A stretch of DNA of 64,000 nt from Polyangia bacterium. GTDB taxonomy: Bacteria > Myxococcota_A > Polyangia > Palsa-1104 > JAEUJZ01. The notes beneath the pieces are model-generated. The model was not told the DNA's origin. It was given only the letters and a program-made list of their open reading frames with translations, and ran no database searches. Numbering within the stretch: the stretch's first letter is position 1; every line of letters begins with the position of its first letter. This document shows positions 39,055 through 57,100 of the stretch, one piece after another. The stretch covers positions 5,234 through 69,233 of the forward strand of contig JBGANQ010000041.1 of assembly GCA_044222245.1 (NCBI GenBank), given 5' to 3'. The position numbers were made by a program, and so were the translations under genes.

Positions 39055-40134
39055 ATGAAAGTGCAGCTTTTTCTGGCACTGGCATCGGTCTCCTTACTAT
39101 TCACTTCTAGCGCTACGGGGTGTGGGTCGGGGGAGTCGGCTGGGCCGGAGCTGCAGAATATTACGCAAGACAGTCTCGCTGCGGATGCCGAGTCAGATGA
39201 TTCCTTTGGCGGGTCTGTGCGCATTGCCTGGTTCGGCAATACCCCCGACAACAATTATGACAATGCCAGCCTGAACGGAGCCATCGATGGGGCGCGCCGC
39301 GGGCACTCTACGGTCCGTCCGTTCTATTGTCAGTACGACCCGAAGACTCAGCTTGATCAGTGTCTGAGCGCGGTGCGCTCGCGCAGCTTTGACGCGTTTC
39401 TGATCGACGCCAATGACGGGGTCGGGATCATTCCCTGCGTACAGAGCGCCGCCAGCCGCGGAATCTCGGTGGTCGCCGTCGATCTTCCCATCGGCTCGGA
39501 CCCGGCCTCGATTCAGCCCCAGGTGCGCGGGCAGGACGGCGCCGTGCTGACCCCGGCGGCGAAGTTCGGTGACACCTTGGTTACCGTCGTCAGCGACCTG
39601 TGCGGCCGGCTCGGCAAGTGCAACCTGGTCTACCTGGCGGGCTCGCTGGGAATAAACTACGACATCATCGCGATTCAGGGTCTGCAGGGACTCTTGCCGA
39701 CCCACCAGAACATCCAGATTGTCTCCATTCAGGAGGCCCTCTATGACCAGGCTACGGCGCGTACCATCATGCAGGGAATCCTGGCCCAGACCCACGACAT
39801 CCAGGTCGTGATCGCCGGCGGCGACCAGATGGCGCGCGGGGCCGAGGAAGCGCTGGCGGCAGCCGGGCCGCTGCCCAATCCGGTGAAGATCATCGGCGGC
39901 GGCGCCGGTGCCTATGCGGTGGATGCGGTGCGCGCCGGGCGGTGGTATGGAACGTTTGTGACCCTGCCGTTTGATGAGGGGGAGCTGGCGGCGCAGATGG
40001 CCATTCGCGCCGCTCGCAGGCAGCGGCTTAAGGTGCGCGGCATTGATCCGGTGGTAAATCGGAATCTGCCGGCCTTTCTCACCGCGGACAACCTCGCCGC
40101 GTTTGCCCAGTTCACCCCGCAGTGGCCGGGGTGA
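39055..40134 (+). CDS. Sugar-binding periplasmic-type (RbsB-like) lipoprotein
   Basis: Lipobox ATGC, GISVVAVD, AGGDQMARGA, IIGGGAG; no permease or ATPase adjacent. Confidence 0.85.
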   Translation: MKVQLFLALASVSLLFTSSATGCGSGESAGPELQNITQDSLAADAESDDSFGGSVRIAWFGNTPDNNYDNASLNGAIDGARRGHSTVRPFYCQYDPKTQLDQCLSAVRSRSFDAFLIDANDGVGIIPCVQSAASRGISVVAVDLPIGSDPASIQPQVRGQDGAVLTPAAKFGDTLVTVVSDLCGRLGKCNLVYLAGSLGINYDIIAIQGLQGLLPTHQNIQIVSIQEALYDQATARTIMQGILAQTHDIQVVIAGGDQMARGAEEALAAAGPLPNPVKIIGGGAGAYAVDAVRAGRWYGTFVTLPFDEGELAAQMAIRAARRQRLKVRGIDPVVNRNLPAFLTADNLAAFAQFTPQWPG

Positions 40135-40182: not shown

Positions 40183-40487
40183 ACTCTGAGGCGCTGCGAG
40201 CTCATCGTGCGCCATCGTTTGCGCCTATCGCTGGTCGCGGTGACCCCAAGATGGCCTATCTTGGGGTCCTTGCGCAGGCGCTAATAATAGCCGCCCGCAG
40301 CGGCTGGCTCAGGTTCCGGCTGAGCCGATAAAAAACCGATAGTGAGCTAATCGGCGCCGCCGGGTCTGCGCCCTATTGCTTACTGTTGTAAGGGAGGGCT
40401 TCTATCCAAAGGAGCGCGCAGCATCAATCTGCGGCGCGCCGCCGGCTCCCCCCGAATGAGGCAGTATTCGTATTTGACAAGTTTTCA

Positions 40488-40956
40488 ATGCCAAAGAGGA
40501 AGCATACGGATATGAAATTCGAAAGATCATCCCAGCTCAATTCACAAGCCGTGAGCACCTATCAGCAGCAGGGCTTCCTGATGCTGCCAGAGTACTTTTC
40601 TCAAGACGAGGTCCTGGCTCTCAAGTCGTGCCTGCCGCACATCTTGTCGGCGAAGACCGAGCGGACCATCTTTGAGCCCGACGGGCACACCGTGCGCTCG
40701 GTGTACGCGGTGCATAAGGACTGTGAGCTGGTGGCCCGCCTGTCTCGCCACCCGCTGCTGGTCAACGCCGCCCGCCAGCTGCTCGGCGGCGAGGTGTATC
40801 TGTATCAGAGTAAGCTGAACCTGAAGCCGGCGTTTGCCGGAACCGCCTGGGACTGGCACCAGGACTACACCTACTGGCACAACGAGGACGCGATGCCGGC
40901 CCCGCTGGCGGTCAACATCGCCGTGTTTCTCGACGACGTCAGCGAGTTCAACGGAC
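40488..40956 (+). pseudogene. 5' half of an Fe(II)/2-oxoglutarate dioxygenase (PhyH/EctD family, proline 4-hydroxylase-like), interrupted
   Basis: QGFLML, YQSKLNLK, WHQDY (HxD), FLDDVSEFNG then similarity stops abruptly; continues at 47734. Confidence 0.9.
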
Positions 40957-41049
40957 GGCAAGCTCCTTTACGACAGCTCGCCGGCAAACACCTACACCTT
41001 TGGGCTGGTCACATCTGCTAACTCCAGCGGGAGCCTTGGCCGTGAGCCG

Positions 41050-41075
41050 ACCGGAGGTGTCTACCGGAGGTGTCT
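41050..41075 (+). repeat. Tandem duplication of 13 bp (ACCGGAGGTGTCT x2)
   Basis: Read directly. Confidence 0.85.
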
Positions 41076-41136
41076 TTGCGGGGCGGCTTGCTCCCCGATG
41101 GAAACATCGCAGGGTAGGGGGGGGCTCGCGGCGCGG

Positions 41137-41730
41137 CTATTTTGACTTGTACCCACTTGGAAGCGCTCGCTCAAGACGACTTTGCAGGTTGAGCTCACTA
41201 GCAAGGATAGACTCCAACGCACTCCCTTCGCGATCCGCAGTCCAGGGAAATCCCATCGCTGTGGTGATGCAGATCGGCTGCTGTTCGGCTCCCGCGATCT
41301 CGACCTCAGCCCAGTAGCCTGGGTTTTCAGCTTCGGACTCGGGCTTCCCCTCAGCGGTGGACCGGATGGTCATGGAGAGGCGGTTGGGCTTTACGATCTG
41401 CCCGGCACGATAACGGACCACGATGCCCCTGGGATCGTCGCGACTTATTTCGACTCGCCACTTGGGGCCCCTGAAGTATCTGTGCAGAACCCAGAGGCCC
41501 AGTCCGACTAGAGGCAGAATTTTGCCAAATATGAAAGATACCTGACTTTCTTCATTAGGTCCGCCGGCAGCGAATGGAGTATCACTGAAGATGAGGAACA
41601 AGCAGAGGCACAGCATCCCCGTGGCGAACAGCGACAGCAGAGACGAGACACTAAACGTCCAGAACCCTTGCGTATAACTGACGACGGTTTTTTGCGCGCT
41701 CTTATGAACCTTAAAGCTACTGCTGGGCAT
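41137..41730 (-). CDS. Hypothetical two-TM membrane protein, visibly lower GC than neighbours
   Basis: ORF from MPSSSFK with two hydrophobic segments and a soluble C-terminal domain. Confidence 0.6.
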   Translation of the reverse strand: MPSSSFKVHKSAQKTVVSYTQGFWTFSVSSLLSLFATGMLCLCLFLIFSDTPFAAGGPNEESQVSFIFGKILPLVGLGLWVLHRYFRGPKWRVEISRDDPRGIVVRYRAGQIVKPNRLSMTIRSTAEGKPESEAENPGYWAEVEIAGAEQQPICITTAMGFPWTADREGSALESILASELNLQSRLERALPSGYKSK

Positions 41731-41868
41731 CTTCGCTCCGCTATCACCTGACCGTGATTTTATCACGCCGCAATAAGTCCTGTGGCGACTGCACAACGGG
41801 GCGCTGGCGTGATTGCGCGGTCGTAGGGAGAGCGGGCCGCGAGCGGGCGTGGGCCGGGCGGTGGCAGA

Positions 41869-42789
41869 GTGCGCAACCTGTCAAATTCTGTTAGCCCAGA
41901 TCGCCCGCGACGTGGCATGGTGCGCTCGATGTCGCCCGCCTCGCTCCTTGGCCGCCGCGCCCACCTCCGAATCCTCCGCCTGACCGCGCTCGGCGCCTGC
42001 CTCGCGCTCGACGATGACGCGATCGCCGACGAGGTCCTCCTGCTGCCCATCGCCGAGCTGCCGGCCGGCGCGAAGGTCGGCGACGAGCTCGCGGTGTTCG
42101 TGTACCTCGACTCCGAGCAGCGGCCGATCGCGACCACTCGCAGGCCGCGGCTCGTGCTCGGGGAGGTGGCCTTCCTCAAGGTCACCGCCGTCACGCCGAT
42201 CGGCGCGTTCGTGGACTGGGGCCTTGGCAAGGAGCTGCTCGTGCCGTTCGCCGAGCAGGCCAAGGAGCTGTTCGTCGGCGAGCGCCAGCCCATCGGCCTC
42301 TACCTCGACAGCACTGGCCGGCTCGCCGGGACGATGTTTGTCGGCGCGCTCATCGAGCGCACGCCGCCCGATGACCTCGCGCTCGACGATTGGGTCCAGG
42401 GCGAGGCGTGGCGCAACGACCCCGACATCGGGCTGTTCGTGATCCTCGAGCGCTCGTATGTCGGTCTGATGCCGGCGTCCGAGCCGCACCGCCTCCAGCG
42501 CGGCGAGTCCGCGCGCTTCCGCATCGCGAACATCCTGCCCGACGGCAAGCTCGTGCTATCGCTCCGCCAGCACGCGCACCACGAGCTCGCCGCCGACGCC
42601 GAGCACGTCCTCGCCGTGCTCGGCCGCCCCGGGGCACCGCGCGTCGGCGATCGCTCCGACCCCGACAAGCTGCGCGCGCTGTTTGGCCTCAGCAAGAAGG
42701 CCTTCAAGCGCGCCGTCGGCCGACTACTGAAGGAGCGCGCGGTCGCGCTTGACGATCAGGGCTTCGTGGTCGTCACCAAGGGCGCTTGA
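41869..42789 (+). CDS. CvfB-like S1 RNA-binding domain protein with C-terminal winged helix
   Basis: FVYLDSEQRPIATT, GAFVDWGLGKELLVPFAEQ, FGLSKKAFKRAVGRLLK; true start may be later. Confidence 0.88.
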   Translation: MRNLSNSVSPDRPRRGMVRSMSPASLLGRRAHLRILRLTALGACLALDDDAIADEVLLLPIAELPAGAKVGDELAVFVYLDSEQRPIATTRRPRLVLGEVAFLKVTAVTPIGAFVDWGLGKELLVPFAEQAKELFVGERQPIGLYLDSTGRLAGTMFVGALIERTPPDDLALDDWVQGEAWRNDPDIGLFVILERSYVGLMPASEPHRLQRGESARFRIANILPDGKLVLSLRQHAHHELAADAEHVLAVLGRPGAPRVGDRSDPDKLRALFGLSKKAFKRAVGRLLKERAVALDDQGFVVVTKGA

Positions 42790-43127
42790 GGGGGAAGGCC
42801 AGCCCCAGCTAGCCGCGACCGCGGCGACCGCCGGCGGAGCTTGTCTCTGATAAAGCGACCTTGGGCTCGCCAATTTGCGCGACCTGTGCAGTCGGGTCAT
42901 GTAGTCCGGCCTCGCGGTCCGCTTTCCGCCCGGGCCCGCGCTGTCTTTCGCGGTGACACCTTTGGCGAGCAATCTCCAGCGCTTCGGGATGCTACGGAGC
43001 GCGCGCCGGCCAAAGCGAGCCTGCCTGCTCACTGCCGGTAGAGGCAAACGCTCGAGTCTCCCACGCCCTATGTCCCCCGGTCATGGCAAAATGAACCATA
43101 GAACCACTCTTCGAGGCCTGAATCGCG

Positions 43128-43505
43128 ATGTCTGAATGGCTCGCCCGCCACCTTGCCGGGCTGACCTCGTGTGCCCTCGGGGTAGCGGCGCTAGGCACTT
43201 CTTTGATCTTGCTTCTCTCGGGGCAGCGCGCTTCCTCCCTGCCTCTCCCAGACCATATGACGCTCGCCTCGTGGAGCGAGGCCGTGACGCAAGGCCTGCA
43301 ACAAGTGGGACCCGCTCCCATTGTCCTGTTTCTGCTCAGCTTGATCGCCGCCGTCATCGCCCGCGCCCGCGGCGAAGGGTCGCGGTGGCTGTGGGCGGTT
43401 GGAATCGCCAGCGGGGCCTGCGCCCTGGTGGTCCCGGTGGTCTTGGCCGCCCTCGCCCTGCTCTTTATCGTCGCCGTCATCGTGGCGGTAATCACCGGGG
43501 GCTGA
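43128..43505 (+). CDS. Small hypothetical membrane protein (3-4 TM)
   Basis: 125-aa strongly hydrophobic ORF. Confidence 0.55.
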   Translation: MSEWLARHLAGLTSCALGVAALGTSLILLLSGQRASSLPLPDHMTLASWSEAVTQGLQQVGPAPIVLFLLSLIAAVIARARGEGSRWLWAVGIASGACALVVPVVLAALALLFIVAVIVAVITGG

Positions 43506-43660
43506 TGTTGCAGCGCGTGGAGGATGCTACGGTGCTCCTGCCGGTGTCAGCCAAGACGCAGTTGATGCCCCCGCGGCTGCTGAGGGAGCGCTGCGCGCTG
43601 GAGGTTGTCGCCGGTGTGGGTGCACCTCACGCCGCTGCAGCGCGGGCGGATGAGCGCCGC

Positions 43661-46600
43661 ATGACTACGATGCGGACTCGGCCCCGGTGCGCAGTCTTGC
43701 TGGTCTGCCTGGCCCTGGGCTTTGGACTTGCGCTGGTCGGCGGGTGCCATGGCGGCGTTGTTTCAGCCAATGGACCCCTGACCTGCAGCGGACCGCAGCT
43801 TGCGCCGTGCGCGCGGGCGCTGCAAGCGGCCGGGGAGGCGGCTGATGCCACCGCGCTGCGCGAGCGGGCGGCCAAGTATGCCGCGCTCGCCCGCGAGCAC
43901 GACCAGGGCGATCCGTGGGCGCAGCTGTTTGCCGCCCTGCAGCGCCAGCGCAGCACCCTGCCGAGCGATGGGCCAGCGACCGTGATCGTCGCCGAGCTGG
44001 CCGTCGCGCCCCAGGTCTTGGCGGCGGCGGCTCGGGCCAGGGTGGCGGTCGTGGTCCAGGACCTCAAGGAGCCGGCATCCCTCCCGGCCGCCGAGCTTCT
44101 GACCTGGCTGGCCGCGGCCGCGCGCTTCGATCATGTGCTGTGGGTGCGCGGGCAGGCAGCGTGGCAGCTTTTCCCCCTGGACCCGCTGCAGCCTTTCATG
44201 GCGGGCCTTGCCCCGGTGGTGCGCGATGACGCCGCGCTCACCCATCTGACAGAGACGGTGGCGCTGGCGCAGACGCTGCGCGCGGCATTTTCTGCCGCCA
44301 GCGGCTTTCATTACGTCGAAGCCGCGGCCCTGGCCGATCGCCTCGTCGCGCAGGCGGGCCGCGAGGCGACACCCGATGAGCCGGTGCTGCGGGCCCGCTA
44401 CGGGCTGCAGCTGCTCAGGGCGGCCGGGATTGTCCTATCGCGAGCGGGCGCGGGCGACTCCACCCCGGACCTTACTTTTTCCGCTTCCCCGGCCGACACC
44501 CCCTACGGGGATCTGCTCCGGGTGCGCCTGGCCACCAGCAAGGCCCGCACGGACGAGTGGACGGCGCGCCGCACCAACATCTTGCGCGGGATTGCCGCCG
44601 ACCGTCGCGACGACTTCGCCGATCTCATGGCGCCGGCACCGGCCTGCCGCAGCCAGCGCCTGCTGCCCATGGAGTCGGTGCGCGACCTGGCGTTCAGCCA
44701 GCGCCTGGCAGACACCCTGGCCCCAGAGGGGGCGACTCCGGCGGCGGGCCAGCTCCCGCTGAGACAGTGGCAGCAGCGCTATGACACCCTGGTCGAGCTG
44801 GTGTCCGCCACCGGCAGCGCCTGGTCCTACCTGCCCGCCCTGCTGCGTCAGCGCGGTCCCGCTCCGATTTCGCCTTCTCCCCCAGGCCGCACCCAGGCTC
44901 GCGTGACCGAGCTGGCGCTGGCTCACCTGCACGCCAGTCAGGAGCTCCAGCAGGCGGCCCCCGCTCGGTATCAGGTCCTGTCCCAGTTCGAGCTCCTGCT
45001 GTGCGCCGGCCTGCGCGCCGATCCGCCGCTGTTTCGCGAGATGCTCTTTCTCAGCGACGCGAGCGTCAAGTCCCGTCTGGCACCTCCGGCGAGCCCGGCG
45101 GCGGTCCTGGAAGGCGTGCTGTGGGCGGCCCTGGCCGGCCTCGGCTACCCCGATGCGGCGCGGGCGAGCTATTTCAACGGCCTCCACGCGGTGCTGAGCA
45201 GCCGGCTGGGCGGCGATCTGCAGAGCCAGACCGGGTGGGCGGTGGCGGGCCTGTACGCGCTTGATGAGCTGTACCGACGGCTGACTGGAGCGCCATCCCA
45301 GCTGGCGACAGACACCCACCACCTGGTGCGCGCGCTCGCCGACCCGGGGGTGGCGTATCCGGAGCTCGCCGGGCTCGTGCAGGCCGCGGCGCTATATCTG
45401 GGGCTGGTCCTTGACAACGCCTTGGACGCCGCGCTGGTCGGCAATCCCGCCGGATTCCCCAGCCAGCGGCTTGAAGCCTATCAGCTGCTGCAGCGCGCCC
45501 TGCAGACCCTTGGCACAAGTGATGCGGCGGCGGCCGCGAGCAGCGAGGCCCGCGACCTGGCCGCAGTCGCCGATGGCCTCTTTACTGTCCTTGCCGCCGC
45601 TGTGCACAGTAAGCCCGGCTGGGAGCCCCAGTGCAAAGACGAGGCGGCGGCGCAGTCGCCACAGCTGCGCACCGCGCTCGACAAGCTGCGGGCGCTGCGG
45701 CTGCAGCTTATTGGGCCGGCGATTTCTCCGACCACCGCGACCAGCGGACAGCTGCGCACCCGGCTGCTGCTGCAGATCTTGTCGGATCTTCTGGACTACG
45801 GGGCGCGCGATGGTCAGCCGATTCGCTTCGCGACTGCCAGCGATGCCGCGGAGAGGAACGTGCGCGACGGGCTGCGCACCTGGCCGCTCGGCACCGGCGC
45901 GGCGCTGCTGGGTCAGAGCTACCGCCTGCTGCGCGACTATCTGGCGCAGGCCGCGGAGCTGCGCAAGGTGCCGCTCAGCCCGGCCCAGACGCAGGCGCTG
46001 CTGGCGCAGCTCCAGGAGCTCGTCCGGGCGGCGGCGCGGGCCGGCACGGGCTCACAGCTGGTCGCCGCGCTGTCGCAGCTGGACTTCAGCAAGCTGCGCA
46101 GCGACAACCTGGCGCAGGCCGCCGCCGGGCTGGCGCAGGGCCTGTACTTGCACGAGCAGCCGCAGCAGGCCGGCATCCTGCTCCTGACCGCCGCCCTCCT
46201 CGACAGCGGGGACGCTGCGGCGACGCGGGCAGTGCTCGCCGCAGCAGAGCGGCAGGATCGTCCCCTGGTCGCCATGGTGCGGTTCCTCCTGGACAGCCAG
46301 TCTCACCTTCAGGGCCGCGCGCCCGCTCCCTCTGCCTACGCCGCGGCCCTGCGCAGCGATGCCGAGTCGGTCTGCCAGGAGAGCGGAACCGCGCAGGTGT
46401 TGACGCTGCTGCAGGCGGCCAGCGACTTCAGTCACGGCAAGCGCGGGCGCGCCCGCAGCAGCCTGCGCGCCTGGCTGCAGGACGCCGAAGAGCACGGACT
46501 CAGCGTGCCGCGCGTCACCTACCAGTTTGAGGAGAAGGTTGGCACCCTGACCTTCCAGCTGGGCTACTCGCTGTCTTATGGGCTGGGCGTGCTCAACGCC

Positions 46601-47521
46601 GGCAAGGACTTCAAGCTCGGCCTGGGTGCCAGCACAACCCCGCACTCGGAGAGCAAGCTCACGACCAGCTTCGCCAGCCACGACAACGACAAGGCCAACC
46701 AAGAGGCAACCCGGTATTACGTTTATGGCGCGGCGCTGCTCGCCGTCTATGAGCTGCTTGACGGTCACACTGCGGCGGCCGAGCAAGCTGCGGCGCGGGC
46801 GCTTATTGGCAGCGAGGGGCGCACCCGGCTCGGCCGGCGTCCGCTGCCAGCGGGGAACGTGAACCTGGCACATGATTCCCGCGCCGTGTTCGCGGTGGCG
46901 GCGCAGCTGTTGGCTGAGGCCGGACGGCCGATTCTGGCCGGTCGCCTGTGGGCCAAGGTCTACGGCGGTTTTTTCGATCACGATGATGAGGCGACCGTGC
47001 TGTCGATCCTCAGCCCGCTGCCCACCGGACTGGCTGGCGTGGCCGCTGTGCCGCCGCTGCTGCCGCGCGTGCAGGCGTCGCTGCGTCAGCTTGCCCGCGA
47101 CCTGCCTTGCCGCCGCCGCGGGCAGCCCCCCTTGGCGGCCAAGGTGGTCACCTGCGCTGAGTACCCGCTCGCGCTGGCGCTCTCTCTGGGCGGCGATGGC
47201 GAGCCGCTGCCGGGCTTTCCCACCAGGCCCCAGACCGCGTGTGAAAACTGGCAGGCCCTGGACCGCTTCATGCGGGTGCAGCGCGAGCGGCAAGCTCCGC
47301 GGCCGGCAAGGGCCGCCGCTATCACGGCCGCGGTGTCGGCGCTGCTCGCGGCGCGGGATGAAGTCGGGGCGGCTCTTCTGCTGTTGCCCCTGCCGAGCTG
47401 TGACGCAGAGCTGCTTACCGCTGCGCAGCGCGTCGCTGCCACCGGAGTGCCACCTCCGCTGCAGCAGCAGCTGCTCAGCGAAGTGACAAGCTGCACACCA
47501 CGCTCTACGCCTGCGCAGTAA
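43661..47521 (+). CDS. Large hypothetical lipoprotein (about 1286 aa), mostly alpha-helical
   Basis: Long ORF with natural codon bias; lipobox LVGGC after MTTMRTRPR; no family recognised. Confidence 0.72.
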   Translation: MTTMRTRPRCAVLLVCLALGFGLALVGGCHGGVVSANGPLTCSGPQLAPCARALQAAGEAADATALRERAAKYAALAREHDQGDPWAQLFAALQRQRSTLPSDGPATVIVAELAVAPQVLAAAARARVAVVVQDLKEPASLPAAELLTWLAAAARFDHVLWVRGQAAWQLFPLDPLQPFMAGLAPVVRDDAALTHLTETVALAQTLRAAFSAASGFHYVEAAALADRLVAQAGREATPDEPVLRARYGLQLLRAAGIVLSRAGAGDSTPDLTFSASPADTPYGDLLRVRLATSKARTDEWTARRTNILRGIAADRRDDFADLMAPAPACRSQRLLPMESVRDLAFSQRLADTLAPEGATPAAGQLPLRQWQQRYDTLVELVSATGSAWSYLPALLRQRGPAPISPSPPGRTQARVTELALAHLHASQELQQAAPARYQVLSQFELLLCAGLRADPPLFREMLFLSDASVKSRLAPPASPAAVLEGVLWAALAGLGYPDAARASYFNGLHAVLSSRLGGDLQSQTGWAVAGLYALDELYRRLTGAPSQLATDTHHLVRALADPGVAYPELAGLVQAAALYLGLVLDNALDAALVGNPAGFPSQRLEAYQLLQRALQTLGTSDAAAAASSEARDLAAVADGLFTVLAAAVHSKPGWEPQCKDEAAAQSPQLRTALDKLRALRLQLIGPAISPTTATSGQLRTRLLLQILSDLLDYGARDGQPIRFATASDAAERNVRDGLRTWPLGTGAALLGQSYRLLRDYLAQAAELRKVPLSPAQTQALLAQLQELVRAAARAGTGSQLVAALSQLDFSKLRSDNLAQAAAGLAQGLYLHEQPQQAGILLLTAALLDSGDAAATRAVLAAAERQDRPLVAMVRFLLDSQSHLQGRAPAPSAYAAALRSDAESVCQESGTAQVLTLLQAASDFSHGKRGRARSSLRAWLQDAEEHGLSVPRVTYQFEEKVGTLTFQLGYSLSYGLGVLNAGKDFKLGLGASTTPHSESKLTTSFASHDNDKANQEATRYYVYGAALLAVYELLDGHTAAAEQAAARALIGSEGRTRLGRRPLPAGNVNLAHDSRAVFAVAAQLLAEAGRPILAGRLWAKVYGGFFDHDDEATVLSILSPLPTGLAGVAAVPPLLPRVQASLRQLARDLPCRRRGQPPLAAKVVTCAEYPLALALSLGGDGEPLPGFPTRPQTACENWQALDRFMRVQRERQAPRPARAAAITAAVSALLAARDEVGAALLLLPLPSCDAELLTAAQRVAATGVPPPLQQQLLSEVTSCTPRSTPAQ

Positions 47522-47556
47522 CGCCCAGGGTGGACAGAGCGCGCAAACCCAGAGAC

Positions 47557-47706
47557 TGCGTGGTCGACGTCGCTGTGGAAGAATTCTTGGACCGAGTCAG
47601 CCGCGATGCGCTGATGGGAAAGCTGGCCAGTCGGATCGTGCGCAAGCGGATGCAGGGACTGGCCCGCCGCTACCTGGAGGCCGGCATCATGGCCGATGAT
47701 AGATGA
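47557..47706 (+). pseudogene. Degenerate fragment of a group II intron-type reverse transcriptase
   Basis: Translates CVVDVAVEEFLDRVSRDALMGKLASRIVRKRMQGLARRYLEAGIMADDR*, resembling the RT segment VVDxDLEKFFDRVNHDxLM...IRRYLEAG; not in ORF track. Confidence 0.72.
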
Positions 47707-47733
47707 TAACTGTTGTATTTGACTTTAAGGGAC

Positions 47734-48179
47734 CCCTGTATCTGGTCCCCGGCTCGCAAAAGGACGGCATCCAGGATCACTCCGAGCTCACTGGCCGGCC
47801 GGAAGGATATGAGCAGTCACCCGAGTGGATCTCGAACCTGACGGCGAAGCTCAAGTATGTGGTCGAGCGCGACCGCGTCGCCGAGCTGGTAAAGAGTCAC
47901 GGCCTCACCGCCGCCAAGGGGCCGGCGGGCTCGGTGCTGGTATTTCACAGCAACATCGTCCACGCCTCTCCTCCCAACATTACGCCGCTGGAGCGCTCTA
48001 CTCTGCTCTTTTCCTACAATCACATCAGCAACGCCCCCCCCGAGTCGCTGCGCCGGCGGCCCGACTTCTTGTCGAGCGCCGATACCCATCCGATCCAGGA
48101 GGTAGATGAGGAGCTCGGCCACCTCCTGAGCTGCGCCGTGGCACGCCCGCTTGGCCGGGGGAACCATGAGCACCACTAG
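47734..48179 (+). pseudogene. 3' half of the interrupted Fe(II)/2-oxoglutarate dioxygenase
   Basis: PLYLVPGSQ, GPAGSVLVFHSNIVHAS (distal His), ERSTLLFSYN, RPDFLS; stop overlaps NRPS start. Confidence 0.9.
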
Positions 48180-51100
48180 CCTGCCCCCCGCCGCGTGGAA
48201 CGAGACTGCGGCCGACTTCCCCCACGACCGCTGCGTCCACGAGCTGTTCGCGGACCAGGTCCGCCGCACCCCGGACGCGGTGGCGGTGGTCTATGGCGAT
48301 GCGGCCCTGACCTATGCCGAGCTCGATCGCCGGGCCAACCAGCTGGCGCACCGGCTGCGCGCCAGCGGCGTCGGGCCCGATACGCTGGTCAGCCTGTGCG
48401 TGGAGCGCTCGCTGCACTTGGCGGTGGGCGTGCTGGGAATCTTGAAGGCGGGCGGCGCCTACGTACCCCTGGACCCGGCCTACCCGGCAGAGCGCCTGGC
48501 GCAGCTGCATGGGGACTCGCAGGCGGCGGTGCTGCTGACGCAGCGGGCGCTCCTGGGTCGCCTGCCGCAGCCGGCGGGCGCGCTCTTGCTGCTGGACGAG
48601 CCGACAGCCGACCCGTGGCCGCAGGATGCGCCGGCAGTGGCGATGAGCGCCGACTCTCTGGGCTACGTCATCTACACCTCCGGATCGACCGGTCGTCCCA
48701 AAGGGATCTGTCTGCCCCACCGCGCGCTGGTGAACCTGATCGTCTGGCACGAGCGCACGCTCCTGTGCGGCGTCAACACCCTGCAGTACGCCTCGCTGAG
48801 CTTTGACGCCAGCTTCCACGAGATGTTCGCTGCCTGGTGCTCGGGCGGGACGCTGTTCCTGCTCAGCGAAGAGGTCCGCCACGATCTCGGGGCGCTGGCG
48901 CGCTTCATCCACGCCCACCAGATCGAAAAGGTCATCCTCCCGGTCATCGTCCTGTCGCAGCTCGCCGAGCAGGTGCGCGGTCAGGAGCAGCTGCTCGGCA
49001 GCCTCAAGGAGCTCACCACCACCGGCGAGCAGCTGCAGATTACCGGGCCGATCATCCAGCTCTTCCGCCGGCTTCCCGGCTGCGCGTTTCACAACCACTA
49101 CGGACCTTCCGAGAGCCATGTGGTGACCGCCTACACCCTGCCCGCCGATCCCGACGCCTGGGTGACCCACCCGCCGATCGGGCGGCCGATTGCCAACACC
49201 CGCATCTATCTGCTGGACGAGCAGCGCCGCCCAGTGCCGGTAGGCGCCACGGGCGAGCTGTATATAGGAGGCGTGTGCCTGGCGCGCTGCTACCTCGGTC
49301 AGCCCGAGCTCACCGCCAGCCGCTTTGTCGCCACCGGCGAGCTGCCCGCTGGCGAGACCCGGCTTTACCGCACCGGCGATCTGGCGCGCTACCGGCCCGA
49401 TGGCTGCCTGGAGTATCTAGGCCGCATCGATCACCAGGTCAAGATCCGCGGCTTCCGCATCGAGCTGGGTGAAGTCGAGACGGTGCTCAGCCAGCACCCG
49501 GGGGTGCGCGAGGTTGCGGTGCTGGCGCGCGAGGATGCGCCGGGGGAAAAGCGCCTGGTGGCCTATGTCGTGCCGGACTTCGCCGCCGCCACCTCGGGAG
49601 CCGCGCCGCTGCACGGCGAGCCGCTGCACGGCGAGCCGGTGCGCGCCCTGGGCGCTGACCTCCGCGCCCGGCTGCGCGAGAAGCTGCCCGACTACATGAT
49701 CCCCTCCGCGCTCGTCATGCTGGCGGCGCTGCCGCTGACCCCCAACGGCAAGCTGGATCGCCGCGCGCTGCCGCCGCCCGGCCCCGCCCGCCCCGAGCTG
49801 GCCACCGCCTATCGCGCGCCGCGCACCGCGCTGGAGCGGGAGGTGACGGCGCTGTGGGAGCAGCTCCTGCACCTGGACGGCATCGGGGTCGAGGACAGCT
49901 TCTTCGATCTGGGCGGCAGCTCGATCCACGCGGCGCAGTTCCTGGCCCGGGTGCGCAGCGCCTACGGCATTGAGCTGACCTTTGCGCGCTTCTTCGCCCA
50001 GCCGACGGTGGCGGCGCTCGCCGCGGCGCTGCAAGAGCAGCGGCCGGAAGGGCCCGCCGCGGCGACGATACCCATGGTGCCGCGCGAGGGCGGGCTGGCG
50101 CTCTCGCTGGCTCAGGAGCGGCTATATTATCTGTACCAGCTCGCTCCCGAAAGCCGCGCCTATAACTGTGCTTCCTGCTTTCACCTGCGCGGCACGCTGG
50201 ATGAGCAGGGGCTGGAGCGCAGCCTGCAAGCGCTGGTGGCGCGGCATGAGATCCTGCGCACCCGCTTCAGCCAGCGCGACGGACGGCCGCTGCAGCTTAT
50301 CGATTCACCGCCGCCGCCGCCGCCGCCGTCGCGCACCCTGGCGGTGGTGGATCTGCAGGCGCTGCCCGAAGCCGAGCGCCCGCTGGCCGCCCGCCGGCAG
50401 CTGGAAAAGGAGACGCAGCACCTGTTCAACCTGGAGCAGGGGCCGCTGTTCCGGGCCACGCTGTGGCGCCTCGGACCGGGCGAGCACTTCCTGCTGCTCA
50501 ACTTCCACCACATCATCATCGATGGCTGGTCGATCGAGGTCGCGCTGCGCGAGCTGGCGCTGTATTACAAAGCCTGGGTCACGCACACGCCGCCGGCGCT
50601 CGCCCCGCTTCCCATCCAGTATGCCGACTACGCGGCGTGGCAGCTGCAGCAGGCCGACAGCGCCGCCCAGCGCGAGCTTGTCGGCTGGTGGAAGCAGAAG
50701 CTGCAGGGCGCGGCGCCGCTCCTCCAGCTGCCCACCGATCATCGGCGCCCCGCAGTGCAAAGCTTCCGCGGCGCCACGGTGGCATTTGCCATCGACGCCC
50801 CGCTGACCGCGGCGCTGCGCGAGCTGGCGGCGCGCAGCGGCATGACCCTGTCCATGGTGCTGCTGGCCGCGTACGCGGCGCTCTTGCATCGCTACACCCG
50901 CAGCGAAGACCTGCTCATCGGCATCCCCAGTGCCAGCCGCCATCGCGTCGAGCTGGAAGGAGTGCTGGGATTTTTCATCAACACCCTGCCGCTGCGCATC
51001 GATCTGTCGGGCGGGCCTTCTTTTGCCGAGCTGCTCGGTCGGGTGCGCGCCACCGCGATCGAGGCCTACGAGCGCGACGCAGCCCCGTTTGAGCAGATCG

Positions 51101-54100
51101 TCAAGGAGCTGCGCCCCGAGCGCGATCCCGCCTACAACCCGGTGGTGCAGCTCGGCTTTGCGCCGCAGCCGCCGGCCGAGCGCGCCCTGGCGCTGCCCGG
51201 GCTGCAGGCCGAGCACGTAGAGGTCGATGCCCAGAAGACGGTCTTCGATCTGACCCTTTACCTTTGGGAGGAGCCGACCCGCACCGCCGCCCTCTTTGAG
51301 TACAGCACCGACCTGTTCACGCCTGCAACGATCGCCCGCCTCGCCGAGCAGTATGTCCTGCTGCTGCGTGCCGCGCTAAAGGACGCGCAGCAGCAGGTCG
51401 CGGCCCTGCCGCTGCTGTCCGCTGCAGAGCGCGACAAGATCCTGCAGCAGTGGAACCCGCCCCCCAGCGCCCCGGCGGCCGCGCCGAGCCTGTATGAGCT
51501 GTTTGCGGCGCAGGCGGCGCGCGCGCCCGCGGCGCCGGCGGTGGTGATGGATGCAGTCACGGTGACCTACGGGGAGCTCGACCAGCGGGCGAGCCAGCTG
51601 GCGCAGCTGCTGCAGGCGCTGGAGCTGCCTGCAGAGACGCCGATTGGGGTGTGCCTGGAGCGCTCTGTGGATCTGATCGTGGCGTTTCTGGGCATCCTCA
51701 AGGCTGGCGGGGTGTACACGCCGCTCGACCCCGGCTACCCCCAGAGCCGACTGCACTACATGCTCGCTGACAGCGCCGCGCCCGTGGTCCTCACCTCGGC
51801 CCGCCATGCCGAGCTGCTCGCCGGCGCTGGAGCTCGGGTCCTGTGTCTGGACACGCCGGCCGCGGCGCTTGCCGCGACGGCCGAGCGCCGTCCGCCCCCG
51901 GTGGCGCCAGGTCAGGCCGCCTACCTGATCTATACCTCGGGCTCCTCCGGCCGGCCCAAGGGAGTGGTCATCGAGCACCGCAGCGCGGTCGCCTTTGTCC
52001 GCGCCCAGCAGGCGGTGGTCGGGGTCACCGCAGAGTCACGAGTCCTACACCTGGCCTCGCCGAGCTTCGACGCCTCGGTATGGGAGCTGCTGCTGGCGCT
52101 GACCGCCGGCGCCGCGCTGTTCCCGGTGCCGGTGGCGGCGACGCTCCCCGGGCCCGAGCTGTGTCGGTTCCTGCGCCAGCACCGCATCTCGATCGCCTTC
52201 CTGGCGCCGGCGGCGCTGGCGCAGCTGCCGCGGGAGGAGCTGCCCGAGCTGACCACCCTGCTCACCGGTGGCGAGGCCTGTCCCGCTGCGCAGGTCCAGC
52301 GCTGGGCCCCCGGGCGCCGCTTCATCAACGCCTACGGACCCACCGAGGCCACGGTCTGCGCGACGATGCAGGTGTGCACCCCGGGCCCCGAGGCGCCGGC
52401 CATCGGCGTGCCGCTGACCAACGCGCGCGTGTACGTCCTGGATGCCGCCGGCCAGCTGCTTCCCACCGGCGTTCCCGGAGAGCTCTACCTTGGCGGTGCG
52501 AGCCTCGCCCGCGGCTACCTGAACCAGCCCGAGCTGACGGCGCAGCGGTTTCTCCCCGATCCCTTTGCGGCGCCCGGCGCCCGCATGTACCGGACCGGCG
52601 ACCTGGGGCGGTGGCGCGCCGATGGGAGCCTGGAGTTTTTGGGCCGCCTGGATGATCAGATCAAGCTGCGCGGCTTGCGCATCGAGCTCGGTGAGATCGA
52701 GTCCGTCCTGCGCGAGCAGCCGCTGATCGCGGCGGCGGCGGTGGTCCTGCGCGAGGAGCGGGACGGTGATCGGCGGCTGGTCGCCTACCTGGTCCCGCGC
52801 GCCGGCGCGCCGACCGCCGCCCCGGCGGCAGCCCCCGCCACGCTGAAGGAGCAGCTGGTCGGCGACTGGCTGCGCCTCTATGAAGACGTCTACAAGCGGG
52901 CCGACGCCGCCGGCGACCCGACCTTCAATATCGAAGGCTGGAACAGCAGCTTCACCGGCCAGCCGATCCCGGCGGCGCAGATGAGCGCCTGGGTGGCGAG
53001 CACGGTGGCGCGGCTGCAGGCGCTGGCGCCGCGGCGGGTGCTGGAGCTTGGCAGCGGCAGCGGCCTGCTCTTGTTCAAGGTGGCCCCGAGCTGCGCGCAG
53101 TATCTGGGGACGGATTTCTCGCCGGCCGCGGTGGCGCGCCTTGGGCAGCTGGTGGCGGCGCGCGGGCTGACCCAGGTGACGCTGCAGCAGCGCGAGGCGA
53201 ACCAGCTGGCCGACCTGCCCGAGAAGAGCTTTGACACCATCATCCTGAACTCGGTCGTGCAGTACTTTCCCGGGCTCGCCTACCTGCGCGAGGTGCTGGG
53301 CGGCGCCGTGCGCGCCCTGACCGCGCCGGGGGTGATCTTCATTGGCGATGTGCGCAGCCTGCCGCTGCGCGAGGCGTTTCACGCTGCGGTGCAGCTCTAC
53401 CAGGCGGCGCCGCAGACCGCCGCCGCGGCCCTGCGCGACAAGACCAGCCGCGCTGCCAGCAGTGACCGCGAGCTGCTGCTTGCGCCCGAGTTCTTCACCG
53501 CGCTGGCGTCCGAGCTGGGACCGCAGGTGCATGCCGAGGTCTGGCTCAAGCGCGGCCGCGGCAGCGATGAGATGACGCGCTACCGCTACGATGTGGTGCT
53601 GTTTGTCGGCTGCGCGGCGCCGGCGGTCGAGCCGAGCGCCACGCGCCACTGGGCCGCGGTGGACGCCTCGGTTGCCGGGCTGCAGGCGTGGCTCACGCAG
53701 GCCAGGCCGCAGGTCGCCGAGATCCTGGCGATTCCCAACGCGCGGCTCGCTGGCGACTGGCAGGCGCTGCAGCGGCTGCAGCAGGCGCCCGACTGCAGCT
53801 GCGACGAGCTTGCGGCCGCCCTGGCGCCGGCGGTGGCGGCCGCGGTGGCCCCCGAGGATCTGTGGCAGCTCGGGGAGCAGCTCGGCTACGCCGTGCGCAT
53901 CACCTACTCGGCAACCGGCGGCCCCGCCTGCATGGACGTACTGTTCGAGCGCGCGGCGGCTGCTCCCTACCCGCGCCCGTGGCGACCCGCCCCCCGGCAG
54001 CCGGCCGCCCGCGAGCGCGCGGACGACTATGCCAACGATCCGCTGCGCGCCAAACAGGACCGGGATCTCATCCCGCAGGTGCGCGAGGCCCTCTTGCGCA

Positions 54101-57100
54101 AGCTGCCTGCGTATATGATTCCCGCCGCCTTCGTCGTGCTCGATGAGCTGCCGCTGACCGCCAGCGGCAAGCTGGATCGCAAGCGCCTGCGCGCCCCCGC
54201 CGAGCTCCGCCCCGAGCTCGGGCGCGACTATGTCGCCCCGACGACCGCCTTGCACAGCGAGCTTGTCGCGATCTGGCGCACGGTGCTGGGAGTCGAGCGC
54301 ATCGGAATTCATGATCCGTTCTTCGAGCTGGGCGGTCACTCCCTGCTGCTGCCGCAGGTGCGCGCGGCCATCGCGACCCGGCTGGGTATCCAGGTGCCGG
54401 TCATCAAGCTGCTGCAGTGCGCGACCGTGAGCGCGCTTGCCGCATACCTGCAGGCGAGCGCCGAGCCGGAGGCGCCGGCCGTGCCGCCGCCGCGCCCCGA
54501 GGTCGCCGCGTCCGCCGCCGCGAGCCGCGCGGTGGCCGTGATAGGTCTTGCCGGGCGGTTCCCCCAAGCCGCCGATGTCGAGGAGCTGTGGCAGAACCTG
54601 GCCAGCGGGCGGGAGTGCCTGACCTTCTTTACGCCGGCCGAGCTGGCAGAGCAGGGCATCGAGCCGGAGCTGCTCCGCTCGCCGCGCCTGGTGCCTGCCT
54701 GCGGCGTACTAGAGGAGGCGATGGGCTTTGACGCGGGCTTTTTCGGCTGCGGTCCCAAAGAGGCGCTGTACATGGACCCGCAGCACCGCGCGTTTCTTGA
54801 GTGCGCGTGGGCCGGACTGGAGGATGCGGGGTACACCGCGCCGACCTATGATGGCGCGATCGGCGTGTTTGCTGGCGCCGAGGCCCCGCGCTACTGGCTG
54901 GAGCGGCTCGGCCTGCACGGCGGACCGTGGAACGCCGAGGACTATCAGGCGGTGCACGGCAACCTGCCCGACAACCTCACCACGCGGGTGGCCGACCAGC
55001 TTGGCCTGCGCGGCCCGGCGATCACGGTGGCCACTGCTTGCTCGACCTCGCTGGTCGCCATCCACCTGGCCTGCCAGCAGCTGCTGGCGGCGCAGTGCGA
55101 CCTGGCGCTGGCCGGCGGCGTGGGAGTCCACTCGCCGTTCGCGCCGGGGCACCTGTATCAGGACGGCGGCCTGATGTCGCGCAGCGGTCACTGCCGCCCC
55201 TTTGACGCCGCCGCCGAGGGCATCGTCAGCGGCAGCGGGGTCGCGGTGGTGGTGCTCAAGCGGCTCGAAGATGCGCTGCGCGATGGCGATCACATAAGAG
55301 CGGTGATCCGCGGCTCGGCGATCAACAACGACGGCGGCAACAAGGCCAGCTACCTGGCGCCGAGCGTCGAGGGCCAGCTGGCGGTGCTGCGCAAGGCCTA
55401 CGCTTCGGCGGACGTCGATCCCGCGACCGTGTCGTACATAGAGGCGCACGGCACAGCGACCCGGCTGGGCGATCTGGTCGAGTTTACGGCGCTGCGCCGC
55501 GCCTTCGCGGAGCGCACCGAGCGGCGGCAGTTCTGCGCGCTCGGCTCGGTCAAGAGCAACCTGGGTCACCTGGGTGCCGCGGCAGGTGTGACCGGTCTTA
55601 TCAAGGCGACGCTGGCGCTGGAGCGCGGGCTCATTCCGCCCACCCTTCACTTTACCGCACCGCCGGCCGAGCTCGAGCTGCAGGACAGTCCGTTTTTCGT
55701 CCATGCGCAGCCGCGCCCCTGGCCGGCGGCAGCGCAGCCGCGCCGCGCCGGGGTCAGCGCCTTCGGGGTCGGCGGCACCAACGCCCACGTCGTGCTGGAG
55801 CAAGCGCCGGCGATCCCGGCGGCGGGCCGCGCCCGCGGCGTGCAGCTGCTGCTCTTGTCGGCGCGCACCCCCTGGGCGCTGGACGAGGCGACGCGGCGGC
55901 TCGCCGCGCACCTGCAGCAGCACCCCGAGCAGCCCCTGCCCGATGTCGCCTATACGCTGCAGCGCGGCCGCGCCCACCTGCAGCACCGGCGGGCGGTCAT
56001 CGCCAGCGACGCCGCTGCTGCCAGCGCCCGGCTGAGCGCGGCGGAGCCGACGCTGGTAGCGACCGGCAGCGTGCCGGCGCGGCCGCCCAAGCTGGTGTTC
56101 ATGTTCCCCGGCGGCGGCACGCAGCGGGTGCAGATGGGAAGGGAGCTCTATGAGCAGGAGCCGGTCTACCGGGAGGCGCTGGCGCGCTGCGCGCGGCTGT
56201 TTCAAAACGAGCTTGGCTGCGACCTGCTCGCGCTGCTGTTCCCGCCGCCGGGCGACGAGCCGGCGGCGGCGGCGGCGCTGCTGCGCCCCTCGCTGAACAA
56301 CGCGGCGATCTTCGCCACCGAGTTTGCGCTGACCGAGCTGCTCCAATCCTGGGGGCTGCGGCCGGCTGCGGTGACCGGTCACAGCCTGGGCGAGTACGCG
56401 GCGGCGTGCCTGTCGGGGGTGCTGCGCCTGGAGGACGCGGTGGCCCTGGTCGCCCTGCGCGGGCGCATCTATGACGAGCTGACCGGCGGGGCGACAATGA
56501 GCGTGCTGCTGCCCGAGGCGACCCTGCGCGCGCGGCTGGGCAGCGGGGTCGAGCTCGCGGCAGTCAACGGTCCGGCTTCCTGTGTGGTCGCCGGCGAGCG
56601 CGCCGCCGTGCTGCGGCTGCAGGCGGAGCTCGCTGCGGAGGGGCATGAGGCGCGCCTGCTGGCGATCGACTGCGCGGCGCACTGCTCGAGCGTCGAGCCC
56701 CACCTGCCGCGCCTCACCGCGCGGGCGGCGACCCTGGACCTGCAGGCGCCGCGCATTCCCATCGTGTCCAACCTCACCGGCGGCTACCTGAGCGAGAAGC
56801 AGGCGCGCGACCCAGCGCACTGGGCCGCCCACCTGCGTGGGACGGTGCGCTTTGCCGCCGGACTTGCGACCTTGCTCGCCGACCCGGACGCGGTGTTCCT
56901 GGAGGTCGGGCCCGGCTGGACGCTGAGCACCCTGTGCCGCCGCCATCCCGACGCCGGGGCCGAGCGGGTGGCGGTGGCCAGCCTGGCCAGCGCCGGCTCG
57001 GGCCGCTCGGATCTGGAGGTGCTGCTGTTGGCGCTGGGGCAGCTGCACTGCACAGGGGTGGCGGTGGACTGGCAGCGCTTCTCTGCCACCGAGCAGCGCC

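Follow-up and report, generated by a model that had tools for sequence, protein, structure and literature searches.

A divergent proline-type loading domain beside a split proline-hydroxylase-like gene, and its probable hydroxyproline starter

Which amino acid does a loading module take when its adenylation pocket ends like that for proline but is otherwise polar, and when a broken dioxygenase gene lies directly upstream? This question is raised by an NRPS-PKS gene in a 64,000-nt stretch of Polyangia bacterium DNA (the window, to which all positions refer). NRPS substrate prediction still fails for most non-proteinogenic amino acids. Our preferred reading, to which we give a probability of about 0.6, is that the dioxygenase makes a hydroxyproline, probably the trans-4 form, and that the first adenylation domain (A1) loads it as the starter of a CorA-like assembly line. 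The features of the locus are listed below.

33363..38447, minus strand: Ser/Thr kinase with AAA_16, GAF and STAS, regulator-like (ORF list; Pfam of the genes of orthologous locus L013)
39043..40134, plus strand: periplasmic-binding-protein gene, Peripla_BP_4 (Pfam)
40488..40955, plus strand: N-terminal half of the dioxygenase, PhyH family, with the HxD iron ligands in WDWHQDY and ending ...SEFNG (Pfam PhyH profile positions 1-141; PDB alignments)
40956..47732, no strand: insertion of 6,777 bp splitting the dioxygenase, with GGAC at both ends (sequence at both junctions)
47733..48179, plus strand: C-terminal half of the dioxygenase, from PLYLVPGSQ onward, with the distal His (NIVHAS), the Arg of PLERST and RRRPDF (Pfam PhyH profile positions 140-211; alignments)
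48166..58359, plus strand: NRPS-PKS gene, A1-T-C-A2(nMT)-T-KS-AT-ACP-TE (Pfam; domain order by BLAST)
48211..49830, plus strand: A1 adenylation domain, core and C-terminal subdomain (Pfam AMP-binding/AMP-binding_C; TIGR01733, 429.7 bits; A-domain tree)

The NRPS-PKS gene probably starts at the ATG at 48166; the longest ORF (3402 aa, 48151..58359) starts from a TTG at 48151. No C domain precedes A1, which forms the loading module. Its TIGR01733 score is well above the cut-off of 317.4, and it carries the adenylation core motifs YTSGSTGRPKG, FDAS, NHYGPSE and GKLDR, including both D235 and K517. [quoted passage not shown]

To read the A1 pocket, core motifs of the 3402-aa ORF were mapped onto GrsA-PheA numbering. 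The resulting specificity code is DAHITTHVVK, exactly the code that had been read by eye in the initial annotation. The codons are as follows.

48805..49125, plus strand: nine of the ten pocket codons, D235 A236 H239 I278 T299 T301 H322 V330 V331 (motif mapping)
48805-07, 48808-10 and 48817-19, plus strand: D235, A236 and H239 (motif FDASFHE)
48934-36, plus strand: I278 (motif IEKVILPV)
49015-17 and 49021-23, plus strand: T299 and T301 (motif LTTTGE)
49096-98, 49120-22 and 49123-25, plus strand: H322, V330 and V331 (motif NHYGPSESHVV)
49750-49752, plus strand: K517, the tenth code residue (motif GKLDR)

The range first given for the pocket, 48800-49130, thus holds nine of the ten code residues, and K517 lies outside it. 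As an internal control, the same mapping on other A domains of the fetched loci returned the textbook codes DVQFIAHVV (Pro/MePro), DASTIAAVC (Tyr), DAFWLGGTF (Val) and DAWFLGNVV (Leu), and a near-Thr code, DFWNIGMVV. In A1 the HVVK end of the proline code (H322/V330/V331/K517) is kept. In place of the canonical proline residues V236, Q239, L/F278, I299 and A301, however, it has A236, H239, I278, T299 and T301. A literature search for DAHITTHVVK, DAHIITHVVK and DAHIMTHVVK returned no paper with these code strings.

In the A-domain tree, 39 A domains with this type of code (DAH-type), from at least four phyla, form one monophyletic clade (SH-aLRT 96). This clade is nested in a clade of 50 together with DVQF..HVV proline-type domains (SH-aLRT 100). 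The changes V236A, Q239H, F278I and A301T are constant across the DAH clade, and I299T is additional in the window copy. Constant motif differences also separate DAH-type from proline-type domains: FDASFHE versus FDVSFQE, KVILP versus RLFLP, and TTGEQ versus TAGEQ. Among solved structures (PDB), the best single-stretch match of A1 is a TycB module, which we take to be Pro-activating. By phylogeny A1 is a proline-type domain, though a divergent one, which has A236 and H239 against a proline-type background. This placement and the TycB match uphold the earlier view of it as divergent proline-type. When 401 genomes of the phylum of the window were searched with A1 (strict E-value; four candidates per genome scored), only the window itself was found, a scope too narrow for this result to bear on the pairing.

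The dioxygenase gene is not a single uninterrupted frame of about 270-300 aa, since it is split at 40955/47733. By Pfam, the insertion contains an unknown 219-aa ORF (minus strand), a CvfB-like S1 protein and a 1461-aa protein without a family match. The intact orthologues L013-L016 each have one 277-aa dioxygenase gene. In the syntenic L013-L015 it is accompanied by a 3383-aa NRPS-PKS of the same architecture with an identical A1 code. In the window, the stop of the dioxygenase overlaps the start of the NRPS gene by 14 nt. When the two halves are rejoined, the H124/D126/H233 triad and the 2OG Arg R244, aligned to PDB relatives, are invariant in the dioxygenase alignment. The motifs quoted in the initial annotation are all present, WDWHQDYTYWHNED in the N-terminal half and GPAGSVLVFHSNIVH and RRRPDFL in the C-terminal half. 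The substrate-carboxylate-binding Arg is also kept; its equivalent in GriE is R242 (PMC5676206).

The closest solved structures of the rejoined dioxygenase are the PhyH set 7dzz/7e00 (E 1e-60), GriE (3.5e-53) and EctD (7e-46). We take 7dzz/7e00 to be the L-proline trans-hydroxylase of Hu et al. 2023; the depositors' name of 7dzz is 'Phytanoyl-CoA dioxygenase', and a literature search on 7DZZ, 7E00, 8H7T and 7DT0 returned chance matches only. The proposed likeness to actinobacterial L-proline trans-4-hydroxylases agrees with the best solved match, whereas "actinobacterial" is the wrong label for the nearest relatives. With 7dzz/7e00, GriE (5nch) and EctD (3emr, 4q5o) the window enzyme shares the fold family, the HxD...H triad, the 2OG Arg, the substrate-carboxylate Arg and the lid-loop region. 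It differs from them in having YQSK instead of HQFK, and a Tyr instead of the His of the proline hydroxylase in VRxVHGCH. Its gene is also split, unlike those of the free-substrate hydroxylases of the PhyH subfamily. In tP4H, a related pipecolate/proline hydroxylase, H58 has been suggested to contact the substrate amine (PMC11290999). This residue appears to correspond to a Tyr in the window dioxygenase (VRSVYAVH), as in GriE.

In the dioxygenase tree, the window enzyme and that of L013 branch outside a clade (support 100/99) that holds both the 7dzz proline hydroxylase and GriE. The tree does not resolve the relative placement of these two inside the clade, and EctD is a distant outgroup. Because the window enzyme lies outside the clade of both enzymes, orthology fixes neither substrate nor regiochemistry.

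We retrieved 80 genome loci by the dioxygenase alone, and 53 of them held any A domain. A DAH-type A domain was present in 35 of these 53, in Myxococcota, Cyanobacteriota, Acidobacteriota and Pseudomonadota. Counted by domain, the same or nearly the same code (DAHI[T/I/M/L]THVV, DAHTITHVV) occurred in 36/125 A domains adjoining homologous dioxygenases. The control was a set of 80 loci retrieved by A-domain similarity (a metagenome scan with the DAH alignment), mostly with generic A domains. Among the matches listed for this set, only 2-3 of 196 A domains (about 1%) were DAH-type and such a dioxygenase was found in 2/80 loci, one of them adjoining a DAH-type module. The association has a Fisher p of 2e-16, which overstates the case because related loci are not independent. 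The pairing of the DAH-type A domain with the dioxygenase is not chance.

The details of these loci agree with this pairing, with some exceptions. Minimal DAH clusters consist of the dioxygenase and the NRPS only, and where a synthetase has many modules, it is often the DAH module that abuts the dioxygenase gene. At L189, DAHFIAHVV lies about 3 kb from a dioxygenase of the family of the window enzyme. On the other hand, 18/53 dioxygenase loci showed only other A-domain codes within 10 kb; at L182 and L179 the dioxygenase stands beside NRPS modules without any proline-type code; and L099 has DAHITTHVA without a dioxygenase in the stretch examined. Around the DAH loci we found no conserved cyclodeaminase, Zn-dehydrogenase or P5C reductase, which suggests that a single hydroxylation separates the substrate from a primary amino acid.

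A published code precedent comes from the scytocyclamide synthetase, whose Hyp/Pro module LxaC3 has DAHFIAHVVK and whose Pro-only module LxaK3 has DVQFMAHVVK (PMC7524897). Like A1, LxaC3 (scytocyclamide/heinamide, laxaphycin) belongs to the Pro clade and has A236 and H239; it serves a 4-hydroxyproline position. A clustered enzyme, LxaN, is reported to convert L-Pro to 4-OH-Pro (PMC8471579). As at LxaC3, a hydroxylase-like gene is clustered with the A domain in the window, here a PhyH dioxygenase directly upstream, split in this copy. The likeness has limits: only A236 and H239 are altered in common, since LxaC3 keeps F278, I299 and A301 where the window has I278, T299 and T301, and whereas A1 is a starter, LxaC3 serves within a lipopeptide line of 11 residues. 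That the dioxygenase supplies the A1 starter, as first proposed, holds as far as can be read from sequence, given the cross-phylum co-localisation, the controls and the LxaC3 code.

Since A1 belongs to a polar-pocket branch of the proline domains that usually stands beside a proline-hydroxylase-like gene, it most likely loads hydroxyproline. The five changes (V236A, Q239H, F278I, A301T and I299T) would have remodelled the pocket to take a hydroxylated proline, most likely trans-4-hydroxy-L-proline. A236 would make room, and the hydroxyl on the ring could form hydrogen bonds with H239 and T301/T299. Free L-proline would be hydroxylated before loading by the Fe(II)/2-oxoglutarate dioxygenase from the gene directly upstream, and A1 would put the hydroxyproline on T1. 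Module 2 would then add an N-methylated hydrophobic residue, KS-AT-ACP would add one malonate unit, and TE would release the chain. Because its dioxygenase gene is cut by the 6.8-kb insertion, the window copy should be unable to supply this building block. LxaC3 gives both Hyp and Pro congeners, which suggests that a deoxy product is possible. We would expect the split copy to give a deoxy (prolyl) product or to lower the yield strongly.

It is possible, though rather unlikely, that A1 loads another imino acid made by the dioxygenase, such as trans-3- or cis-hydroxyproline, dihydroxy- or oxo-proline, or hydroxylated pipecolate. The basal position of the window enzyme to the clade with both the proline hydroxylase and GriE leaves room for this. 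Trans-3 and trans-4 proline hydroxylases are listed in a review as coming from the same uncultured source (PMC8061225), and the native substrate of the close relative tP4H is L-pipecolate (PMC11290999). Further polar Pro-clade codes, for example DVQFIGEVV and DLYFITEVV, also recur beside these dioxygenases. Against pipecolate, no lysine cyclodeaminase is conserved near the DAH loci, and the sole published code precedent, LxaC3, is for 4-hydroxyproline.

Less likely still is that A1 loads plain L-proline and the dioxygenase acts later, on carrier-bound prolyl or the released product, with the polar changes as lineage drift. The unchanged H322/V330/V331/K517 core is consistent with this. The Hyp module of pseudovibriamide has a normal Pro code, with the timing of hydroxylation open (PMC11796379), and the proline of telomycin is hydroxylated after assembly (PMC8471579). 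However, the four pocket substitutions are conserved within a single clade that covers at least four phyla, and their occurrence follows that of the dioxygenase gene. Three control loci have standard Pro-type codes without such a dioxygenase; yet L081, L087 and L183 have Pro-type modules together with the dioxygenase. Codes also differ in a synthetase with both Hyp and Pro positions (PMC7524897), and the characterised members of the subfamily, proline 4-hydroxylase, GriE and ectoine hydroxylase, are described as acting on free substrates (PMC11611013; PMC5676206).

We consider it very improbable that the dioxygenase is a GriE-like leucine 5-hydroxylase acting as the first step towards 4-methylproline, and that methylproline is what A1 loads. 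Among the solved relatives GriE ranks second, and the Tyr in VRSVYAVH agrees with GriE VRALYASH. This pathway, however, requires the GriF/NosE dehydrogenase and a reductase (PMC5676206), and neither is conserved beside DAH loci. The Nostoc synthetases L081 and L087 carry DVQFIAHVV, the hydrophobic Pro/MePro code, alongside the DAH module. With only about 14% identity to GriE, the leucine hydroxylase LdoA of cyanobacteria falls outside the family of the window enzyme (PMC5676206); on the same figure, we rejected the Nostoc dioxygenases as LdoA-type leucine hydroxylases.

We give very little weight to the view that the dioxygenase hydroxylates ectoine, or is some unrelated PhyH protein, and stands beside the NRPS by coincidence: its best NCBIfam match is TIGR02408 (ectoine hydroxylase) and many database homologues are auto-named 'ectoine hydroxylase', but its halves score only 122.6 and 50.7 bits, far under the cut-off of 336.5, it has WHQDYTYWH where the EctD structure 3emr has WHSDFETWH, EctD is remote in the tree, and the stop/start overlap with the NRPS gene and the repeated co-localisation argue against coincidence.

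With a hydroxyproline starter as the preferred reading, the product of the window locus would differ from that of the nearest myxobacterial model. CorA, the NRPS/PKS for coralinone (a 5-methylpyrazinone) in Corallococcus, makes a dipeptidyl beta-keto acid that decarboxylates and cyclises, and nMT variants are reported (PMC10979478). Both CorA and the window enzyme are single myxobacterial megasynthases with the order A-T-C-A-T-KS-AT-ACP-TE, to which the window enzyme adds the nMT in A2. The CorA starter is a primary amino acid (dipeptide Leu-Val), which permits an aromatic pyrazinone, whereas the window starter is a predicted imino acid and residue 2 is predicted to be N-methylated. If the code reports the substrate, residue 1 would lack the primary alpha-amine of the CorA type. 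With an imino-acid starter and an N-methylated residue 2, a monocyclic pyrazinone could therefore not form in the way of CorA.

The fungal peramine synthetase PpzA-1 (PerA) is also a two-module line, A1-T1-C2-A2-M2-T2-R2, and 4-hydroxyproline feeding raised its product 50-fold; modelling placed its polar code residues Thr500 and Glu521 so that they could bond the ring hydroxyl (PMC6926027). The order A-T-C-A-MT-T-R is common to the DAH-first bacterial relatives L023, L037, L050 and L063-L085. PpzA-1 differs in being fungal, in its other pocket residues and in its terminal R, where the window enzyme ends in KS-AT-ACP-TE. To our knowledge, no bacterial product is known.

For genome mining, these results give a testable rule: a Pro-clade A domain with A236, H239, I278 and T301 beside a P4H-like PhyH dioxygenase marks a putative hydroxyproline position. 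The rule spans the four phyla named above. The results also connect two published pyrazinone routes, one with release by a reductase and one with release by a CorA-type PKS, to a predicted imino-acid starter. From this connection we predict that bacteria make counterparts of peramine, the insect deterrent of fungi, and for the window locus we predict which product would be lost or changed upon interruption of the hydroxylase gene. A much more speculative proposal, unlikely as a whole, is that DAH-first two-module synthetases (ending in R or in KS-AT-ACP-TE) with a P4H-like dioxygenase may be how many bacteria make peramine-like pyrrolo[1,2-a]pyrazinones. The free ring N of the starter hydroxyproline would attack an aldehyde or ketone at the C-terminus, and the ring would become aromatic by losing the 4-hydroxyl. 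A split or intact hydroxylase gene would set the congener. In myxobacteria and xanthomonads, the products would serve as signals, and the periplasmic binding protein and Ser/Thr-kinase regulator of the cluster would read them. Six other two-module loci also have Peripla_BP_4 homologues flanking the dioxygenase/NRPS pair. Next to the intact orthologous cluster of L013 lies a kinase homologue of 1691 aa, and L018, L024, L025 and L028 have neighbouring kinase-AAA_16 genes.

The core motifs of the first adenylation domain (A1, the loading module) were placed on GrsA-PheA numbering, and the pocket code was read from them. The window DNA is high-GC, and Pfam and BLAST gave the domain order A1-T-C-A2(MT)-T-KS-AT-ACP-TE for the NRPS-PKS.

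48151..58359, NRPS-PKS ORF, 3402 aa, probable ATG at 48166
A1 motif FDASFHE: D235, A236 and H239
A1 motif IEKVILPV: I278
A1 motif LTTTGE: T299 and T301
A1 motif NHYGPSESHVV: H322, V330 and V331
A1 motif GKLDR: K517

The resulting code, DAHITTHVVK, is the same string that the initial annotation had read by eye. Codons 1-9 lie at 48805-49125 and the K517 codon at 49750-52. As a mapping control, A domains of other fetched genome or metagenome loci (L-numbers) gave canonical codes, among them DVQFIAHVV, DASTIAAVC, DAFWLGGTF and DAWFLGNVV. The second A domain (A2) has the code DAWFLGAVCK.

A tree was built from 108 A-domain cores, all from the fetched loci. The DAH-type domains, whose code begins D235 A236 H239 in a Pro-type background, formed a single clade (39/39, SH-aLRT 96) nested inside a 100%-supported clade with DVQF..[HQ]VV proline-type domains. 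Motif comparison showed four constant changes between the two types.

Pocket residues of the two types: the four constant changes, then position 299
Position 236: Pro type V, DAH type A
Position 239: Pro type Q, DAH type H
Position 278: Pro type F, DAH type I
Position 301: Pro type A, DAH type T
Position 299: Pro type I/V, DAH type T, I, M or L

Because of this nesting and these changes, the earlier description of A1 as a divergent proline-type pocket is right both by phylogeny and by residues. The same code was found in relatives. L013-L016, from activated-sludge and other contigs, carry an A1 67% identical to that of the window with an identical code, in a 3383-aa NRPS-PKS of the same domain order. 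This is preceded by an uninterrupted 277-aa dioxygenase, 57% identical to the window's. A third relative, L012, also has DAHITTHVV.

In the window, this PhyH-family Fe(II)/2OG dioxygenase gene, just upstream of the NRPS-PKS, is split by an insertion.

40488-40955, dioxygenase N-half, ends ...SEFNG, PhyH profile positions 1-141
47733-48179, dioxygenase C-half, starts PLYLVPGSQ, PhyH profile positions 140-211
43136-47521, + strand, 1461-aa ORF, the largest gene in the inserted segment

The halves are separated by 6,777 bp with GGAC at each end, and the C-half stop overlaps the NRPS ATG by 14 nt. The 1461-aa ORF had no Pfam or NCBIfam match, and no recognisable transposase or recombinase was found in the inserted segment. 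Judged from its sequence, the split copy cannot yield an enzyme. No second close copy was seen in the source assembly (9.6 Mb, 83% complete). L011:1-1553 (ENA ERZ650282) holds a dioxygenase N-half with 88% nucleotide identity to window 40465-40938. Its match to the window ends at 40938, about 16 bp short of the insertion junction; unrelated DNA follows, and no C-half was found within the next 1 kb. Either the contig is an assembly chimera, or this is a second, different interruption at almost that position.

The halves were rejoined for searching only. The top solved relatives were the 7dzz/7e00/7dt0 set (E 1e-60), deposited as "Phytanoyl-CoA dioxygenase", which we take to be the L-proline trans-hydroxylase of Hu et al. 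2023. GriE leucine 5-hydroxylase (E 3.5e-53) and EctD (E 7e-46) were also matched. The rejoined enzyme keeps H124, D126, H233, R244 and an Arg matching GriE R242. The score against the ectoine-hydroxylase model was far under that model's cut-off.

We fetched 80 genome loci with the dioxygenase alignment alone. At least one A domain lay within 10 kb in 53 of them, and 35 of these 53 had a DAH-type domain (36 of 125 A domains). These loci span Myxococcota, Nostoc/Anabaena/Scytonema, Pyrinomonadaceae and other Acidobacteriota, Lysobacteraceae and Steroidobacteraceae. In long synthetases, the module next to the dioxygenase gene, whether before or after it, is often the DAH one. As a control, 80 metagenome loci were taken by A-domain similarity from among the matches listed; only 2-3 of their 196 A domains were DAH-type, and only 2 of these 80 listed loci had a P4H-like dioxygenase, one directly behind a DAHTITHVV module. 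The Fisher p is nominal and overstates the pairing, since the loci are related and not independent; recurrence over phyla and cluster architectures is the stronger argument. The pairing is genuine, and the DAH code with the dioxygenase makes a useful cross-phylum signature.

There are exceptions. Eighteen dioxygenase loci have other codes only, and L099 (DAHITTHVA) has no dioxygenase in the stretch covered. Since L179 and L182 have the dioxygenase without a Pro-type module, the sub-branch of L179, L180 and L182 may use a different amino acid. In these three related clusters (cyanobacterial G121, G062 and G097), a DIEDIGTVS code directly adjoins the dioxygenase. Actinomycetotal dioxygenases (L030, L049, L054, L056, L059, L066, L070, L075) form their own clade with an HQSK motif and adjoin KS-AT-T PKS genes; in L056 and L075 the neighbouring A domains are DVWF[LF]SLIV, not DAH-type. 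This pairing differs from the DAH pairing and is uncharacterised.

Other Pro-like codes beside family dioxygenases are DVQFIGEV[VA] (L097, L188, L193), DANFLTEVV (L019), DLYFITEVV (L062), DAHFIAHVV (L189) and DAHFQAHVV (L084). Several of the recurring ones carry Glu322, and the modelled hydroxyl contacts of fungal PpzA-1 are Thr and Glu. The L062 domain, the only one of these treed, fell inside the Pro clade. The recurring codes may be independent solutions to hydroxylated-proline binding.

When neighbouring ORFs at 38 DAH loci were clustered, no further family proved to be shared throughout, including cyclodeaminase, Zn-dehydrogenase and P5C reductase, and some Nostoc clusters consist of NRPS and dioxygenase only. 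This points to an amino acid that a single hydroxylation separates from a primary metabolite. The methylproline route requires a dehydrogenase and a reductase (PMC5676206). In the scytocyclamide synthetase, LxaC3, at the Hyp/Pro position, has DAHFIAHVVK, sharing A236 and H239 with the window A1, and the Pro-only LxaK3 has DVQFMAHVVK (PMC7524897). LxaN reportedly forms 4-OH-Pro from L-Pro (PMC8471579). The DAHFIAHVV of L189, from another cyanobacterial genome, has a dioxygenase of the window family some 3 kb away. LdoA, a cyanobacterial leucine hydroxylase, falls outside this family.

In the dioxygenase tree, the clade holding both 7dzz and GriE excludes the window enzyme and L013, and DAH-associated enzymes are found both inside and outside it. 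The tree does not fix the position of hydroxylation, so we give hydroxyproline, probably trans-4, a probability of about 0.6; another hydroxylated imino acid is an unlikely building block. For hydroxyproline, the comparative evidence (the clade, the pairing and the LxaC3 precedent) backs the initial proposal of a dioxygenase-supplied hydroxyproline-type starter, and supports reading the window system as a putative hydroxyproline-selecting A domain with a clustered free-proline hydroxylase. Since Hyp and Pro congeners both occur at the LxaC3 position, a prolyl analogue or reduced yield seems more likely to follow from the insertion than a full block.

Two-module synthetases that start with a DAH domain have two release types. 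One, A-T-C-A(±MT)-T-R, occurs in several Myxococcales MAGs and in Nostoc, Anabaena and Kofleriaceae; the window and L013 have the other, A-T-C-A(MT)-T-KS-AT-ACP-TE. The C-A-T-C-A-T-R route to pyrazinones and the CorA route, A-T-C-A-T-KS-AT-ACP-TE, both published (PMC10979478), parallel these respectively, the window and L013 adding the MT. Fungal PpzA-1 (A-T-C-A-M-T-R) matches the reductase type; there, peramine rose 50-fold on feeding with 4-hydroxyproline, and in the model polar code residues lie where they might bond the hydroxyl (PMC6926027). As pure inference from these parallels, a bicyclic pyrrolopyrazinone would be a reasonable prediction for the product.

L065:593-9814 (Nostoc linckia NIES-25) is a compact two-gene cluster of a C?-A(DAHITTHVV)-T-C-A(MT)-T-R NRPS and a dioxygenase. 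About 12 similar Nostoc loci, free-living and lichen-associated, make this type widespread. The first A domain of its NRPS has, at its end, an inserted PilZ-like segment (residues 939-1021).

Of the neighbouring window genes below, the binding protein and the kinase also recur beside two-module DAH clusters (L018, L023, L024, L025, L028, L037, L013).

39043-40134, Peripla_BP_4 periplasmic binding protein, kept in Myxococcota and Pseudoxanthomonas
33363-38447, Ser/Thr kinase with AAA_16, accompanying several clusters, with GAF and STAS too in the window and L013
within 30677-33189, - strand, 427-aa DegT-like aminotransferase-type ORF, upstream of the kinase
within 30677-33189, - strand, 409-aa ORF, likewise upstream of the kinase, carrying a radical-SAM-like CxxxCxxC motif

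The binding protein and kinase hint that the two-module DAH product might be sensed or regulated as a signal. In the syntenic L013, the place of the 427-aa and 409-aa ORFs is taken by an aminotransferase, a CmcI-type methyltransferase and a cupin.
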